DNA of 21,158 bases from Candidatus Aenigmatarchaeota archaeon (GCA_046760225.1 JBHIDR010000011.1:1-21158); one strand, 5' to 3'. Positions 359-8,692 are shown, counted from the stretch's first letter. Translations and numbers: made by a program. The notes: generated from the letters alone by a model not told the origin.

Positions 359-1561
359 ATGATTGAGCTTCTCTTTGCAGTCATGTTGGGCTTGTTTGTT
401 GGCTGTGCCTGCGGCATATTCCCCGGCCTCCACCCAAACAGCACAATTCCCATCATACTTGGCTTCTCGTTCCTTTTCCAGCCCCTTGAAGCAGCAATTA
501 TCCTGATAAGTGCTGGTGTCACAAACTCGTTTGTTAGCTTCATACCAGCTGTCTTCCTGGGTGCTCCAGAAGCAGATTCAGCACTCTCTGTTCTCCCTGG
601 CCACAGGCTCCTCTTGCAGGGAAGGGGGTTTGAGGCAGTCAGGCTCACTGTGGTGGGCGGCCTTGGCGCTACATTTCTTGCAATACTGCTGTTGCCTGTT
701 TTTTCCTTGACCATACCATCTGTGTACCATCTTATACGGCCTGTCCTGCACTGGATTTTATTGGCCCTTGTGTTCTACATGATAATGGGTGAGGAGGGTT
801 TCAAGAACAAGATTCTGGCTGCTTATGTTTTCCTCTTGTCAGGCATGCTGGGCTATGTTGCAATTAATTATATGTCTGTTAAGGAAATTCTTTTCCCCCT
901 CCTTACAGGACTTTTCGGCCTTCCTCTTCTGTTGCTGTCAGTTAAAAGAAATGTCAAGCTGCCTGAAAGCTTTTCATTTGAATATGAAAGAATCAAGAGA
1001 AGATCAGTAATATCTGGTATTGGAATAGGGAGCCTGGCAGGCATTATAGCAGGCCTCCTCCCAGGATTGGGAAGCTCGCAGGCAACAGTGATTGCACAGG
1101 AAGCAGTTGGGCACAAGTCTGACAGGAATTTTCTCATAGCAATCGGCGGTGTGAACACCTCGGATGTCATCTATTCCCTTCTTGCGCTCTATCTCATAGG
1201 CAATGCCAGGAGCGGTATTGCTGTTGCAGTTGGTAACATGATTGCTGTTGGTTTCAACCATGTGCTGCTTTTCCTTTGCGTTATTGTTGCATCTGCAGGG
1301 GTTGCTGCTTACATAACAATAAGGATGACCAGGAAGTTTGTTTTCTTTCTGAAAAGAATGGATTACAGAAGGCTTTGCCTGCATATCTTTGTTCTCTTGT
1401 TCGCGCTCGTGGCAATCTTTTCAGGCTCCACAGGCCTGGTTGTTGCACTGGTCGCGCTCTCCATTGGCCTGATTCCGAACATTGTTGGTATCAAGAGGAG
1501 CCATTGTATGGGCTGTCTGCTATTGCCAACAATATTGCTCTTCGCCGGACTCAGCTTTTAG
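359..1561 (+). CDS. Archaeal TctA-like (tripartite tricarboxylate transporter family, COG1784-like) membrane protein
   Basis: About 400 aa, very hydrophobic. Motifs GIFPGLHPN, FIPAVFLGAP, SVLPGHRLLLQGRG, GLLPGLGSSQA and GNARSG, with an internal two-fold repeat. ATG at 359 is preferred over GTG at 335. Confidence 0.85.
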   Translation: MIELLFAVMLGLFVGCACGIFPGLHPNSTIPIILGFSFLFQPLEAAIILISAGVTNSFVSFIPAVFLGAPEADSALSVLPGHRLLLQGRGFEAVRLTVVGGLGATFLAILLLPVFSLTIPSVYHLIRPVLHWILLALVFYMIMGEEGFKNKILAAYVFLLSGMLGYVAINYMSVKEILFPLLTGLFGLPLLLLSVKRNVKLPESFSFEYERIKRRSVISGIGIGSLAGIIAGLLPGLGSSQATVIAQEAVGHKSDRNFLIAIGGVNTSDVIYSLLALYLIGNARSGIAVAVGNMIAVGFNHVLLFLCVIVASAGVAAYITIRMTRKFVFFLKRMDYRRLCLHIFVLLFALVAIFSGSTGLVVALVALSIGLIPNIVGIKRSHCMGCLLLPTILLFAGLSF

Positions 1562-4500
1562 GAACATCCACAAATTTTCCCAGTGAGCCATTGTAAGAGA
1601 AGTATATTTGTGAACCGCATTCAGGACAGGAACCGCTCAGCGGAGGTTTTTTCGAGAACCATCTGCACTTCTTGCATGAAACACCATCGCTTCCCTTGAG
1701 TGTTGTGTTCTCAGGTGATTCTGGTCTGGAATTGAGTATGTCCATGAGGCTCTTCTGCCTGCATCCTTCCAGCAGCTCTGTCCTGGTTATGTTGCATGCC
1801 TCAAATATCCTTTCCAGCGGCGGCAGCACCTGGTTCTCTATGTAATACTGTGAATCAATTTCCAGTCCCCTTTCTTTTACATACTTTGGGTCCTCTGCTC
1901 TTTTGGACAATAGGTCATTTCCCTTGATTATAACATAGCCCAGTCGCTCGCCAACAAGGTTCTGTCTTGTTGGGTCCCTCTTCCTTATTTTCTTTGCAAG
2001 CTCAACATGCGGCTGTATCCCGTCATATGCATCAAGCGACTTTGTTATTCCTTTCACAACTGTCAGCTTCTCCAGAGGCACTTTGCCGTTCGCCAAATCC
2101 TTCAACACAGCCCTCACATGCTGTGAGGCCTTGTTTATGTCCTGTTCCTTGAGAACAATTTCAAGCACTTCCTTCATTGTGTCAGATGTCAGCTCGCACC
2201 AGTCCCTTCTTATTGTCTCTATTCCTTTCATCAGTATCCTGTCCTTCCACTTGTTCCCCTTCTTGTCAAATGCCCAGCCAGCATATCTCTTCTTTGTCAG
2301 AATAAGAAACGTCCTGAATATCCTTTCAAAGCTGAGCTTGAGCCCGGGCAGCCTTTCTGTCACGAACCCCGAGATCTCGTTTCCTGTCTGCTCAGCAAGG
2401 TCAAGGTTTAGTATGTTCGTCTTTATGAAGATCGAGTCAGTATTATGAAGCAGCACCTGGCCGCAGCTGTCCACAAACATATGAGAACCCTCAACCTCTA
2501 AATCGTACACATGTCCTTCATAGGGTTCTTCAATTGTTTTTGTAATGACCTTTGCATTGTGTTTTGTGGTCGTTGTTATTGTATAGGCCTTTTTGGGCTC
2601 CCTGTATTTGATTGAGTACTTCATTCCTAAGAGCGTAAGAAGCAGACTGAAACCGCTTGCAAGCCTGAGTGATTTTGTAGTATAGCTGAAATTCCTCCTT
2701 TTGTACTGCTCTGTATAAGGCAGCTTCCTGTTCATGAACTTACGGGAACCGTCGCCAAGAACCATGTTATCCAGTACTATCCTCTGGTATCTTTCTGGTA
2801 AATTGAATACAAAATCCGGCAAGTATTTGCTGTCGCTCCTTTGCCCGCACAGCATTTTGAAAAAAACAGCTGCAAGCGAGTTCATCACCTGAAGCTTGTG
2901 TGTATTGTCCTTGTATTCAATACGCCTTCCATTGGAGTTTAGCCTTCTTATGCCCGGCATTGACGGTATTATAGACGCCTTGCAGTTTCTGAAAAGCAAT
3001 TTATAATCTTCTTTTAATTGTTTTAGCCATTTGATGTCACTCGATGCTATGCTTGCTCCCATGCGTGATTCAGTTGTTTCAGGTGTTGAGCTGCTGCCCT
3101 CTGAAACATAAGCGCCTATCAGCCTGCACAGCGCCTCCATCTCAGGTGTACCGGCATGTATCATTCTCTTTAGCATTACCGGCTCTTTCCTGTTCATCCA
3201 GCCGAAATAAAGAAGGCCGCCGTCAGTATGCACCATTGCTGTTTTCTGTCTTCCTTTGTAGAGGCTTTCCGTCCTGTATCCGCACAGGTGCTCAAAAAGG
3301 TCCAGTTCCTTGATGTTTCTTCCCCTGGGAATGCCCTCGACCCTTATCATGCGCCTTCCGCCCATGTCTTCTGGTCTTGTTTCTTCCAGTTCGCCGTTGC
3401 TTAGTGTCATTATGGAATGGTCCTGCGTTACAGCTGTCTCACCGAACTTCTGCACAACCCTGAATACCTTCTTGTCTGTTTTGTGGCGTATTACCTTTTT
3501 GATGGGCATCCAGCATGCTGTATGGGTCTTTGGGTCTACTGTAAGCGCCTTATAACCGCTTACACGCGCAGCTTCTTTGGGCCCTATATTGAAGACAGAG
3601 CCTGAGAATTCATTGAAAAGTTCTTCTATGTTCTTTGTTCTTATCGTCCCGCTCTCGTCCATGACTGTCACGAACCTTTCTGCTGTCACACTGTCCCCAT
3701 AAAGCACTTTCACAGGATGGTTGTCCTCAACAAGCTTCTTTGTCTTCATTATGTTTTCCCTTCCAAAGCTTGTTATTGAGTTTGCTATGTCCATCACATA
3801 GAGCCTTGACCTCATATAGCCAGTATAGCCATAGAGCGAGTTTGCCATTGTCTTCAGTGCGAGCTGCTTTGCGTTCAGTACCCTTGTTCTCTCAGGGTCT
3901 GTCTCCTTCCTTATCTGTTTCTTTACTTCTATTCTCGTGTCTATCATTTCACGTATGACCTTTGGAAGGACACCTTCCCTGGTTTCTTTTTTGACAAACT
4001 TGGTGCCATAGGGCGTCACAATATAATCAGAAGGTCCTTCATCAAGCAGTATTGTTGTCGGGCATATGTTGAACAGATTTATTATTGAAGGATAAAGTGA
4101 CTGGAAATCCAGAACAAGCGTGCACCCGGATGCATGCAGACCAGCAATAGGGTCGAGCACAAGCGCACCAGTAAGCCCTACTTTTTCCCTTTCAACCCTT
4201 CTCTTGCTTATTTCTGCTGCATCAGGCCTGCAGGGCATGAGTATCTTCCTCTTCTTGAACTCGTGCAGGATTTTGTTTTCATGCCTCTGTGCCTGGCCCC
4301 CGAATATGTCCTGCAGCAACAGCCCTGATACTTTTGAGAGCTCAAAGAACTTGTCAAGCATTCCCTTGTCAAGCACCAGCCTCAATGCCAGTTCAGAGTC
4401 CTTTCTGCAGTAGTCAACTATTTTCTTTACGCCCTTGAAGCCGCTGTTCCACAGTTCTCTCATCTCCTTTGGCCCGCCAACATCCATCTTTTCCATTCCA

Positions 4501-5488: not shown

Positions 5489-6331
5489 TTAAACTGTTTT
5501 CGGTATGTCCCTTATGTCCCTGGTCTCTAAATCTATCTCCACTGCCCTGTGTTTTGGCAGGCCTATGATTGTTGTTCCCTTGTAGTTCTTGGTAAAATGC
5601 TCGGTTGTTGTGGTTATGAAGATATCAGGAACAGGGTCTATCACATCATTCGGTGGCTTGTTCAGGTGCCTTCTCTTTAACAGCTCCAAGGGAACATCTT
5701 TCTCATTTATCCCGAGCTCCTTTGCAGCCTTTTTGTGGTCAGCCACATGCACAAGCACCAGCACTCCACAGCATTCATAGAACCTTGTGCCTTCAACCAG
5801 AATGTGCTTGCCTGTTGTTATTTTCATTGGGAATCTGGCAGGGCTCCTCAGGCCTGTGTCAGGAAATACAATCTTTTCAGCATAGAGCGTGTTGTTGTTT
5901 ACCCTTCCTACTGCCCCAACAACATCATCATCAAGGAGCTTTATGTCTGTGACAAGTCCCATGCTTCCTGTTGGGTCCTCTATCATATTGCCCCCTTTCA
6001 TCCCTATCACAGCCGAATGCCCCTTTGCGTTCCTTATTGAGACCGGGTTCTTGAGCTCGATCTTGTTCATCAGCAGTGCCTGCAGCTCCTTGTACCTCTG
6101 CGCATAAAGCCCCACCATGTCATGCACGCTGTAGTGTGTTGGATTTTTCAGCTCCTTGGCAATTGTTATTTGCATGCACATCTCCTCAGCCTCTCTCTTT
6201 TTTAGAACAAGCGGCTTCTCTTTCATCCTGCCCAACTTCTCAAAAACGAGCGCCGCCCTTTTTTCATCCTTTAGGAACTCAAGTGCATCAGGCTCAAGCA
6301 TTATACCCAGTTCCAGTATCTTCTTCAGCAT
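5489..6331 (-). CDS. Truncated DP1 (PolD small subunit)/B-subunit-like protein, predicted catalytically inactive
   Basis: DP1-like segments YAQRYKELQALL, VIGM...IEDPTG...LLDDDVVGAVG...IVFPD (OB-fold region) and LLKRRHL...VIDPVPDIF...YKG...IDLET. Only 280 aa, with none of the DxH, GDxxD, GNHD or GHxH metal motifs. Confidence 0.75.
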   Translation of the reverse strand: MLKKILELGIMLEPDALEFLKDEKRAALVFEKLGRMKEKPLVLKKREAEEMCMQITIAKELKNPTHYSVHDMVGLYAQRYKELQALLMNKIELKNPVSIRNAKGHSAVIGMKGGNMIEDPTGSMGLVTDIKLLDDDVVGAVGRVNNNTLYAEKIVFPDTGLRSPARFPMKITTGKHILVEGTRFYECCGVLVLVHVADHKKAAKELGINEKDVPLELLKRRHLNKPPNDVIDPVPDIFITTTTEHFTKNYKGTTIIGLPKHRAVEIDLETRDIRDIPKTV

Positions 6332-6339
6332 GTTTATCC

Positions 6340-7530
6340 TTAGAATATTTGTTCAAGAACATTCTTTACCTTTTTGGTTATGGGCCCGGAAAGCGCCAGG
6401 TTTATTGTTCTTGTCCTCCCGTACCTTCCCCTGGATATTACTTTTGTTGTTATTATGCCGAAAAGGTCTAGCTCTGCTATGAGGTCGCTTATCCTTCTCT
6501 GGGTAAGGCACTTTATTCCTGCTCTCCTGCAGTTCTCCTGGTAGAGCTCCAGCACATCCCCCGTGTTTATGTTCCTCTGCTTCTCAGAAAGCTGTATTAT
6601 TGAATAAAGCACAGCCTTGCTCTGTTTTGGCTGTGCCTTTATTGTCTCAAGTGTCCTGTCCATGTCTATTTTCTCTTCAGCATGGTCAACATGCTTTATG
6701 CTTATTGCCTCATCACCCTGCCTTTCAGCAATCTCAGCCGACACCCTCAGAAGATCAAGCGCTCTTCTTGCATCACCATGCTCCTGTGCAGCAAGTGCAG
6801 CACATTTCTCTATTACACCATCCCCAACTGTTTCTTCTCTAAATGCTATTTCAGCCCTTGCCTTGAGTATGTCCCTGAGCTGCATTGCATTGTATGGAGG
6901 AAAAATCAGCTCCTCCTCACTCAGGCTGCTCCTTACTCTGGGGTCAAGGCTGTTTATGAACCCCAGATCATTTGTTATACCTATTATGCAGACACGCGAG
7001 TTGTTCAGCTCCTCATTTATCCGCGTAAGGTTGTACAGCACCTCGTCACCTGTCTTCTTAACAAGAGTGTCTATTTCATCTATTATGAGTATGAGTGTCT
7101 GCTTTTCCTTGTCCAGAAGAGAGAAAAAGCATGAATATATCTGGTCAGTTGGCAGGCCAGTAAAAGGCACCTCCCTGCCAAGTTCCTTTGATAAATAAGC
7201 CAGCAACCTGTATTCTGTGTCAGCAGAATGCCTCATCTTGCAGTTCGCATATATCACTCTTATTCTGTGGCCATTAGCAGCCCTTCCAAGCTCACCTGTC
7301 ACCATTGTTGAAACAAGGGACTTGCCAGTGCCTGTCCTGCCGTATATGAATATGTTGCTGGGCCTGTCGCCTTTCAGAGCAGGAGCAAGTATCCTGGCTA
7401 TCTCCTCAATCTGCTTTTCCCTGTGCGGAATATTCCTTGGAGTAAATGATATTGAGAGCGCCCCCCTGTTAAGTATAATTGGTCTTGCATTCATGAATTG
7501 TGAAAAAAGCTCTTGTACTTTTTCTGACAT
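6340..7530 (-). CDS. cdc6: Orc1/Cdc6 replication initiator
   Basis: Walker A GRTGTGKS, Walker B IIDEID, LDPRVRSSL, FPPYNA, HGDARRALDLLR, and the winged-helix end SRGRYGRT. A GGTGA Shine-Dalgarno sequence precedes ATG at 7530. Confidence 0.97.
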   Translation of the reverse strand: MSEKVQELFSQFMNARPIILNRGALSISFTPRNIPHREKQIEEIARILAPALKGDRPSNIFIYGRTGTGKSLVSTMVTGELGRAANGHRIRVIYANCKMRHSADTEYRLLAYLSKELGREVPFTGLPTDQIYSCFFSLLDKEKQTLILIIDEIDTLVKKTGDEVLYNLTRINEELNNSRVCIIGITNDLGFINSLDPRVRSSLSEEELIFPPYNAMQLRDILKARAEIAFREETVGDGVIEKCAALAAQEHGDARRALDLLRVSAEIAERQGDEAISIKHVDHAEEKIDMDRTLETIKAQPKQSKAVLYSIIQLSEKQRNINTGDVLELYQENCRRAGIKCLTQRRISDLIAELDLFGIITTKVISRGRYGRTRTINLALSGPITKKVKNVLEQIF

Positions 7531-7559
7531 GATTATCACCCTTTTTTCTTCTGGAGTTT

Positions 7560-7950
7560 ATCTTTAACCATGTGAACATATTTATTGTTTTCTCCATGTG
7601 AAACAAAGGGGTCAAAATGAAGTTGCATTAGAAATAAAGGGGTTCATATGAAAGGCGAAAATACGTTGATAACCGAAGAAATAGGGTGTTTTATGCCTTG
7701 TGAACATCTCCCGTTCTATGTGAAACCAGAGAACTTCATTTTAACTTCATAAATTACCATATAACAATGTTATAATTATCTCCATAAGCAGTTTTTTCCA
7801 CCTGAAATCCCACCCCATGCTTTCCTATAAAGAAAATAAATAATAGAAATAAGAAAGAAAACATACCCCTACTTCCTATAACAATGTTATATATTATTAT
7901 AAACACACAATCTTATCTACTAACATGGGTTCGACAAGAAACCATGGGGC
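7560..7950. other. Probable replication origin (oriC) with ORB-like repeats and AT-rich unwinding tracts
   Basis: Non-coding stretch of about 400 bp upstream of cdc6. TCCATGTGAAACAAAGGGG (7593-7611) and TGCATTAGAAATAAAGGGG (7624-7642) match the archaeal ORB core plus G-string pattern. Further copies lie at 7714, 7796 and 7930, with weaker inverted ones at 7813 and 7866. AT-rich tracts lie at about 7737-7780, 7826-7862 and 7877-7903. Confidence 0.85.
7760..7891. repeat. Two identical copies of the 15-bp palindrome TATAACA-A-TGTTATA (7760-7774 and 7877-7891)
   Basis: Read directly from the sequence: 7-bp inverted arms with a 1-nt spacer, and starts 117 bp apart. Confidence 0.9.
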
Positions 7951-7951
7951 C

Positions 7952-8692
7952 CTACACACCACTAAAGTTCTGTTTCAGTGTTTCAAGAAGAACCTTTACA
8001 TCACTTCCTTTTGAAACAGCAAGGGGTATGCCTTCTATTTCAGCTATTCTCTTTGCAAGCTCATCAACATTCTCGCTCCTGTTGCCATGCAATACCACAA
8101 GCCCTGGTTTGAGGTTTGTTACTTTGAGCGCAACCATGCTGCTCTTGCCCCTGTGCGCACCAGTAAAGATCAGGGCCCTTTCACTTGTTAACCCATAAAG
8201 CTTGACCAGCTCCATTGGCGGAAGCTCTATTATTGCCTTCAGGCTGTCAATAACAGTATAACCATACAGCTTGCCCTCATTGCCCCCTCTTGTTACAAAG
8301 TTGGCTGAAAGCGACTTGCAGAAGTCCTTTGTTGATACAGGGGATGAGAACTCCTTCAGGTCAAGCACAGCATCAGAAAGCGCAGCCTTTGTTGGGAATG
8401 TTGAGAATTCCTTTATGACCTTGCCACCTACTTTTTCATCAAGCGCAATCATGGCGTCAACTATTCTCTTTATTACCTTTATCCCAGGGCTCTTCCTCCT
8501 GCTGTTCTCATAATCACTTATAACAGAGGGCATTACCTTCATTTGTTCAGCAAGTGTTCTTTGTGGTATTTTGAAGATGTTCCTCCATTTCTGTATTGTC
8601 TTGCCAGCATCAGAACTCAGCACAATCTCACCAGCAATTCTTTTTGCAACAGATTCCTTTGCAAGAGCCTCTTCATTGACCATGACAATCAT
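7952..8692 (-). CDS. Archaeal XRE-family HTH transcriptional regulator (COG1709-like)
   Basis: RIAGEIVLS...GKTIQKWRNIFKIPQRTLAEQMKVMPSVISDYENSRRKSPG forms the HTH. The C-terminal domain has YGYTVIDS, LYGLTSERALIFTG and KPGLVVLHG. The start may be 8683. Confidence 0.88.
   Translation of the reverse strand: MIVMVNEEALAKESVAKRIAGEIVLSSDAGKTIQKWRNIFKIPQRTLAEQMKVMPSVISDYENSRRKSPGIKVIKRIVDAMIALDEKVGGKVIKEFSTFPTKAALSDAVLDLKEFSSPVSTKDFCKSLSANFVTRGGNEGKLYGYTVIDSLKAIIELPPMELVKLYGLTSERALIFTGAHRGKSSMVALKVTNLKPGLVVLHGNRSENVDELAKRIAEIEGIPLAVSKGSDVKVLLETLKQNFSGV

Follow-up and report, generated by a model that had tools for sequence, protein, structure and literature searches.

A shortened DP1 homologue as the probable accessory subunit of the neighbouring family B DNA polymerase in Candidatus Aenigmatarchaeota

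We find that a 280-residue protein encoded between the orc1/cdc6 initiator gene and a family B DNA polymerase (PolB) of a Candidatus Aenigmatarchaeota archaeon is a homologue of archaeal DP1 and of the eukaryotic polymerase B-subunits. This protein, here called mini-DP1, has retained the helical domain at its N-terminus and the OB fold, together with about 45% of the phosphoesterase (PDE) fold. It very probably acts as the accessory (B) subunit of PolB, whose start lies 23 nt downstream of the mini-DP1 stop. The window, by which we mean the whole 21,158-nt stretch that was analysed, corresponds to contig C11 in an assembly of 851 kb with a completeness of 83%. Along its minus strand orc1/cdc6 is followed by mini-DP1 and then by PolB, which carries an intein and ends in a zinc finger of the DP2 type (Table 1). 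The initiator gene scores 508.6 bits on NF001625 (cut-off 501 bits). An earlier note on this DNA had described an intact reading frame tightly coupled to cdc6, and both parts of that description hold, as the frame is open over 280 residues with no stops and 8 nt separate the cdc6 stop from the mini-DP1 start. The motifs that the note quoted are all found in the protein: IEDPTG at residues 117-122, VVGAVG at 137-142, IVFPD at 154-158, VLVHV at 192-196 and PDIFITTTTEH at 235-245. The nearest named homologue, from a Candidatus Aenigmatarchaeota MAG, is 52% identical and annotated as 'hypothetical protein'.

Table 1. Positions of the cluster genes and of their domains in the window.
Feature	Position	Strand	Description
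orc1/cdc6 initiator gene, first of cluster	6340..7539	-	NF001625; Cdc6_lid and Cdc6_C domains
mini-DP1 gene	5489..6331	-	280 aa plus stop; apparently non-catalytic DP1/B-subunit homologue
N-terminal helical domain of mini-DP1, residues 1-52	6176..6331	-	model helices 2-7, 14-19, 23-35 and 45-51; NF003118 match from residue 3
Linker helix and OB fold of mini-DP1, residues 54-160	5852..6172	-	model strands 104-155; surface on which the PolB zinc finger is predicted to dock
PDE remnant of mini-DP1, residues 161-280	5492..5851	-	motifs II and III deleted; I, IV and V substituted
Family B DNA polymerase (PolB), 1304 aa	1551..5465	-	PF00136 E = 6e-103; PF03104 E = 5e-39
PolB C-terminal tail, residues 1255-1304	1554..1703	-	CxxC...CxxC zinc finger; Cys 1264, 1267, 1280 and 1283

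Homology and fold of mini-DP1

The NCBIfam model for DP1, NF003118, matches residues 3-159 of mini-DP1 along positions 10-213 of its 481 (E = 5.8e-11). At 42 bits the match stays far under the 445-bit cut-off, and it covers the N-terminal domain and the OB fold only. The Pfam scan of mini-DP1 returned no family at E <= 1, the PF04042 model (DNA_pol_E_B) matched nothing anywhere in the 83%-complete assembly of the organism's own genome, and a single-sequence phmmer search of mini-DP1 against PDB sequences gave nothing at E <= 10. Mini-DP1 thus shows neither of the profile marks of the DP1/B-subunit superfamily, a PF04042 match or a DP1 equivalog hit above cut-off. A profile built from five mini-DP1 sequences does match solved DP1 chains (6knb_A, E = 4.8e-5; 6hms_A, E = 7e-4). 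It aligns residues 68-186 of mini-DP1 with 140-285 of 6knb_A and, in a weak stretch, residues 212-256 with 433-490, and because the region between the two stretches is unaligned, some 150 DP1 residues have no counterpart in mini-DP1.

Structure comparison was carried out on an AlphaFold2 model computed from a 113-row alignment (pLDDT 96.4, pTM 0.88), which superseded a run with only five sequences that had reached a pLDDT of 66.5 and rendered the OB region poorly. In a Foldseek search with this model, the listed matches at E <= 0.001 (42 in total) were all DP1 or eukaryotic B-subunit chains, with a match at E = 1.9e-11. The top structural match in VIA-align was P. abyssi DP1 (6t8h_A; Z = 19.1, rmsd 3.3 Å, 227 residues aligned), in which residues 54-280 of the model correspond to 196-616 of the chain. 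Among the eukaryotic B-subunits, Pol delta p50 scored Z = 17.4, Pol epsilon p59 16.3 and Pol alpha p70 15.0. Chains of the Pol epsilon B-subunit align over residues 1-280 of mini-DP1, including the N-terminal domain (7pfo_A; Z = 16.1, rmsd 9.9), and the OB domain taken by itself (residues 94-157) gives VIA-align matches with Z of 7.5-8.5. Within the OB fold the stretch E118-D119-x-T121-G122 is nearly invariant. An OB and a PDE fold that superpose on those of the superfamily are therefore present in mini-DP1, the PDE fold only in part. The kinship with DP1 that the earlier note had proposed is borne out by the NF003118 match, the profile matches to PDB chains, Foldseek and VIA-align alike, and the Foldseek comparison with DP1 and the eukaryotic B-subunits, which the note had proposed, returned both.

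The order of N-terminal domain, OB fold and PDE region is that of archaeal DP1 (P. abyssi 5ihe and 6t8h; T. kodakarensis 6knb). Mini-DP1 differs from these proteins in the PDE region, which has 123 residues against 270-272 in DP1 of the same class and gives no match to PF04042, and in its partner, which would be PolB and not DP2. Its likeness to the B-subunits of eukaryotic Pol alpha, delta, epsilon and zeta (3e0j, 5vbn, 4y97) is of another kind, as both are non-catalytic DP1 homologues. They also share a design in which the homologue docks on the zinc module at the C-terminus of a B-family polymerase, an arrangement that is predicted in our case. The eukaryotic chains among the matches span 410-573 residues, compared with 280 for mini-DP1. 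Eukaryotic B-subunits keep a PDE fold that is inactive but of full size, whereas about half of that fold is gone from mini-DP1.

The phosphoesterase remnant and its conservation

We sized the deletion by aligning mini-DP1 with the full-length DP1 of two genomes of the same class (G054 and G047). The motifs are named here after what we take to be the five PDE motifs, DxH, GDxxDG, GNHD, H and GHxH, at positions read from the same-class full-length DP1. Most of the shortening after the OB fold falls in a single block of 106 residues that is absent after mini-DP1 residue 180 and that holds GDxxDG and GNHD (motifs II and III); smaller gaps span 6, 10 and 17 residues. Motifs I, IV and V are substituted, and the residues that replace them are not conserved among orthologues. 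The five motifs with their metal ligands that mark an active DP1 are thus missing from mini-DP1. An accompanying DP2 was not found either, the matches to DP2 models in the organism's own, 83%-complete genome being the PolB tail only. With two motifs deleted and the other three substituted, mini-DP1 cannot be a canonical PDE nuclease, and judged from its motifs it is a catalytically dead relative of DP1. These results agree with the earlier note in that the catalytic core is deleted and the protein non-enzymatic. They correct it in two details. The remnant is about 45% of the PDE region and not the last third of the fold, and the joint to the OB fold, put at some 25 residues, has about 30 and still holds a strand equivalent to the first PDE strand.

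A nuclease or phosphoesterase whose active site had been rebuilt from non-canonical residues, for example H178, H195 and H245, would have to draw on the histidines that lie near the former motif positions in GKH (176-178), VLVHV (192-196) and TEH (243-245). None of these three histidines is conserved in the family, and the nearly invariant columns hold no histidine and no pattern of metal ligands. Two of the five motifs are physically missing, and PolB has an exonuclease domain of its own (PF03104, E = 4.8e-39). We regard a rebuilt active site as very unlikely.

The shortened protein is widespread. A HMMER library search with mini-DP1 found 285 cluster representatives at E <= 1e-3, among them 93 at E <= 1e-10, and among the matches listed (150 of the 285) lengths run from 125 to 398 aa and are mostly 260-390. 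Mini-DP1 was matched in 52 of 61 genomes of the class, a count that includes its own genome. The nine unmatched genomes comprise three of family f14 that have full-length DP1 and DP2, one of family f10 (G043) with an intermediate DP1-like gene, and five in which nothing was detected, four of these less than 90% complete. By comparison, PF04042 finds only 5 of the 61 genomes. Because mini-DP1 escapes Pfam, surveys of DP1 that use a PDE-domain profile will miss such forms.

In family f1, to which this window belongs, the short architecture was seen in 4/4 orthologues examined (276-291 aa, 31-52% identity, no stops). Nei-Gojobori dN/dS came to 0.07-0.33 in four of seven pairs, rough values with dS saturated at 1.6-2.9, and dS could not be computed in the other three. 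Within the genus, identity is 52% for mini-DP1, compared with 77% for Cdc6 and 67% for the PolB N-terminus, and on these identities mini-DP1 evolves faster than both its neighbours. This faster divergence, together with the loss of about half of the PDE domain, the blank Pfam result and the 'hypothetical protein' label of the nearest named homologue, would suit a decaying remnant, that is a recent DP1 pseudogene whose frame is open by chance. A pseudogene of that kind would not be expected across 52 of 61 genomes and 285 representatives, in a length kept stop-free in every f1 orthologue examined, at a dN/dS of which no value comes near 1, and with a compact fold predicted at a pLDDT of 96.4. 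These observations effectively refute it, and we give it the lowest probability of the readings considered here. They uphold the view of the earlier note that the gene is maintained, and the comparison of orthologue dN/dS that it had proposed was among the checks run.

PolB and its zinc finger as the predicted partner

The more constant neighbour of mini-DP1 is PolB, which lies directly downstream in 11 of 11 loci of relatives. Cdc6 lies upstream in nine of the 11; of the remaining two loci one is too short and the other (L012) has no cdc6 within 1.5 kb. The C-terminus of the window's PolB matches three DP2 models (NF011302, E = 1.6e-5; NF011303, E = 2.9e-5; NF003103, E = 3e-3). A complete PolB that ends in a CxxC...CxxC tail was found in 15 of 17 downstream regions fetched from relatives. 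The exceptions are L030, where the longest frame, which resembles PolB in its C-terminal residues, hits the edge of the stretch and shows no CxxC tail, and L038, where the longest ORF is not PolB. All four zinc-finger cysteines are invariant in the 16 aligned PolB tails. When a profile of these tails was run against three DP2-bearing genomes it matched only the C-terminal zinc finger of DP2 (E ~1e-8), and the PolB tail and the DP2 C-terminus share RRPPL.GKCP.C. On this sequence evidence the PolB finger is of the DP2 type and homologous to Zn-III of DP2.

A search for a separate DP1 and DP2 elsewhere in the organism's own genome, as the earlier note had advised, found neither full-length DP1 nor DP2 in the 83%-complete assembly. 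DP2 (PF03833) occurs in three of the 61 genomes of the class, all of family f14, and these have full-length DP1 and no match to mini-DP1. DP2 and mini-DP1 are mutually exclusive across the 61 genomes.

Complex prediction was carried out with mini-DP1 and the last 95 residues of PolB in three runs, alongside three controls. The ipSAE was 0.69 in all three runs, as against 0.01 for the best control. Of solved complexes 116 of 157 attain the ipSAE mark by which such values are read, as do 2 of 215 mismatched pairs, counts that apply here only roughly because the prediction used alignments of our own. At least 94% of contacts recur between the runs, and the partner pLDDT is at least 67. On mini-DP1 the predicted interface comprises residues 65-80, 111-123 and 134-135, plus 226, and on the tail it comprises residues 63-69 and 87-92 of the 95. 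In the predicted complex the basic loop K63-G69 of the tail (PolB 1272-1278) contacts E118-D119-x-T121-G122 in the OB fold, and the tail's terminal strand runs along mini-DP1 residues 65-69. In PolD the basic Zn-III loop is described as sitting in an electronegative groove between OB and PDE (PMC6355029), and the docking mode predicted for mini-DP1 and the PolB tail is the Zn-III mode published there for DP1-DP2. The third mark of the superfamily, a partner with a C-terminal zinc module at the OB/PDE groove, is thereby found by prediction only. Since complexes of DP1 with DP2 and of B-subunits with C-terminal domains had already been solved, the prediction may owe its score to them, and it shows likeness and not binding. 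Physical binding of mini-DP1 to PolB is nevertheless suggested by this prediction taken together with published yeast two-hybrid results on copies from the lineage other than this one.

The modelled contact does not explain why the PDE remnant is conserved, because the remnant contributes only residue 226 to the predicted interface with the PolB tail. Its nearly invariant residues are R221, P235, D236 and Y250-G252. These may be structural, or may serve another partner.

The earlier note had favoured a non-enzymatic ssDNA-binding or adaptor factor for initiation or polymerase loading. A stand-alone factor of the first kind would bind ssDNA through its OB fold and work with Orc1/Cdc6 at the origin, independently of PolB. 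The OB domain does resemble RPA OB folds (Z = 7.5-8.5), the gap to cdc6 is short and cdc6 recurs upstream in most relatives' loci, and an AT-rich intergenic stretch with clustered short repeats lies upstream of cdc6. Adjacency to PolB is more constant, however, and the best-conserved OB residues, E118, D119, T121 and G122, are acidic or small and fall within the predicted docking site of the zinc finger. Published yeast two-hybrid data also tie DP1 of this lineage to PolB (PMC12680538). We therefore consider an initiation factor that acts apart from PolB improbable, if less so than a pseudogene or a rebuilt enzyme. An initiation role tied to cdc6 is not supported in the form proposed, since PolB is the steadier neighbour. 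The reading as an ssDNA-binding or adaptor factor is too vague; a polymerase B-subunit fits better, given the DP2-type finger on PolB and its docking in the prediction.

If mini-DP1 is the B-subunit of PolB, the arrangement could work as follows. In a lineage where DP2 was not found, the B-family polymerase carries a DP2-derived zinc finger at its C-terminus, and mini-DP1 has kept the parts of DP1 that would dock the finger, namely the helical N-terminal domain and the OB fold along with the C-terminal half of the PDE domain. The same parts could also connect to other replisome proteins. The metal-binding PDE core is the part given up, a loss that could be tolerated because PolB has its own exonuclease domain. 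The N-terminal domain may in turn tether PolB to the helicase or to other replisome factors, a role modelled on the eukaryotic B-subunits.

The spacer upstream of cdc6, at 7540-7951, has several features of its own. It is AT-rich, the bin 7001-8000 having 39% GC, and it holds clustered short repeats (CCATGTGAA twice, CTATGTGAA and CCTTGTGAA) as well as a 27-nt direct repeat at 7595 and 7626. The cumulative GC skew has its minimum near 8-9 kb. The spacer is possibly a replication origin with ORB-like boxes. Over the whole window, the ORB-like TCCATGTGAAAC with up to 2 mismatches was matched three times, not significantly more than the chance expectation of 2.65, so it is the clustering of the repeats upstream of cdc6 alone that is suggestive of an origin. 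Across this putative origin from cdc6 lies an ORF of 246 aa (7952-8692, minus strand) with an N-terminal HTH_3 match (E = 4.8e-5) and a C-terminal part that is unassigned.

PolB itself shows further features. Between the polymerase thumb and the zinc-finger tail it has the sequence QKSLMDIL (PolB 1237-1244; window 1734-1757, minus strand), which we liken to the PIP consensus. Relatives show the pattern Qxx[LF]xx[ILF][LF] with the Q invariant in 16 of 16 tails, and the motif may be a retained PCNA-binding site. An intein of 417 residues (PolB 592-1008; window 2442-3692, minus strand) sits inside the polymerase motif YGD|TDS. It begins with Ser and ends in His-Asn, followed by Thr, and its similarity to LAGLIDADG homing endonucleases is weak (PF14528, E = 1.4e-3, below cut-off). 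Most PolBs of relatives have 886-930 aa and no intein; one has 1339 aa, and a frame of 1246 aa leaves the fetched stretch. A second match to family B polymerases lies outside the window (G000 contig C31:1735-2811, plus strand; PF00136, E = 4.9e-52) in a frame of 381 aa. Over two stretches it shares about 33-34% identity with the PolB of the window. No zinc-finger tail was seen for it in the genome, and it may be a fragment or a short paralogue.

Known systems and graded DP1 sizes

The pairing of DP1 with PolB is already published for this lineage. Kazlauskas et al. 2020 describe Aenigmarchaeota B6 PolBs with a one-motif DP2-like CTD ('B6-aenigma1'), together with the loss of DP2 and a group of inactive DP1 in Aenigmarchaeota ('Aenigma_GB_GCA_002789635-like'); a 336-aa DP1 match adjoins a B6 PolB on one contig in their Table S4, and they inferred that DP1 and PolB pair (PMC7544198). 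A 2025 paper in Nat Ecol Evol reports yeast two-hybrid and AlphaFold3 support for DP1 binding PolB-DP2CTD in Aenigmatarchaeota, and names Aenigmatarchaeota and Baldrarchaeia as the only archaeal lineages that lack DP2 yet have DP1 (PMC12680538). Judged by its nearest named homologue, mini-DP1 comes from the same lineage as the inactive DP1 group (PMC7544198). The features that define that group, an inactive DP1 adjoining a B6 PolB with a CTD and no DP2, are all seen here in a genome that is 83% complete. The two are alike in having a DP1 that appears non-catalytic beside a single-finger PolB, with DP2 not found. The likeness is one of layout, and mini-DP1 has 280 aa compared with the 336 of their match (PMC7544198). 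In the accessible text of PMC7544198 and PMC12680538 we found no mention of a physical loss of the PDE core, and the former describes its group as 'inactive' or 'inactivated'; a search for further literature on DP1 and PolB in DPANN/Aenigmarchaeota returned none. What may be new here is that the core is physically gone and that sizes are graded from family to family.

In eukaryotic replicative polymerases an inactivated DP1 homologue is joined to the B-family catalytic subunit by way of a zinc module at the C-terminus of the latter. The eukaryotic CTD carries two metal motifs set on a helical bundle (PMC7544198), whereas the PolB tail in the window has one finger and no bundle. The same design is reported for two lineages of archaea, of which Aenigmatarchaeota is one (PMC12680538). 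Among these the window is a clean syntenic example, which shows how far a conserved accessory subunit can shrink and so helps to define the surfaces that are essential to a B-subunit.

Sizes of the post-OB region are graded across the class. In family f14 it has 270-272 residues with all five motifs, and DP2 is present. In family f10 it has 196-197 residues, the motifs are partly degraded, DP2 is absent and the gene adjoins a PolB with the finger. Families f3 and f4 have 125-153 residues and family f1 has 119-123. The PolB tail lacks the helical bundle even in f10, and PolD is described as having contacts between the bundle and the PDE domain (PMC6355029). Because the f10 tail is already without the bundle, the loss of these contacts may have preceded the shrinkage of the PDE domain. 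We lean slightly towards the view that the mini-DP1 family is the smallest natural polymerase B-subunit, and that the size series records a stepwise erosion of a proofreading nuclease after PolB took over. The series was read without a rooted tree, and it does not by itself imply an order in time. If this view is right, a B-subunit can function without the PDE core, and the minimal module consists of the N-terminal domain and the OB fold, that half of the PDE fold which completes the docking groove, and a single PolB zinc finger. The class would then offer a natural experiment parallel to the origin of the eukaryotic B-subunits.

We also considered a swap of DP2 for PolB in place, within an ancestral cdc6-DP1-DP2 cluster. 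It has no support here, as each of the three relatives with DP2 has that gene and DP1 on separate contigs, and no cdc6 turned up within 1.5 kb of DP1 in these three genomes.

In two f10 loci (L022 in G043 and L023 in G052) the gene between cdc6 and the zinc-finger PolB is DP1-like, intermediate in form and 364-377 aa in length. These genes give partial PF04042 matches, neither genome has DP2, and the copy in G043 keeps DLH and GHSH. They are candidate transitional forms.
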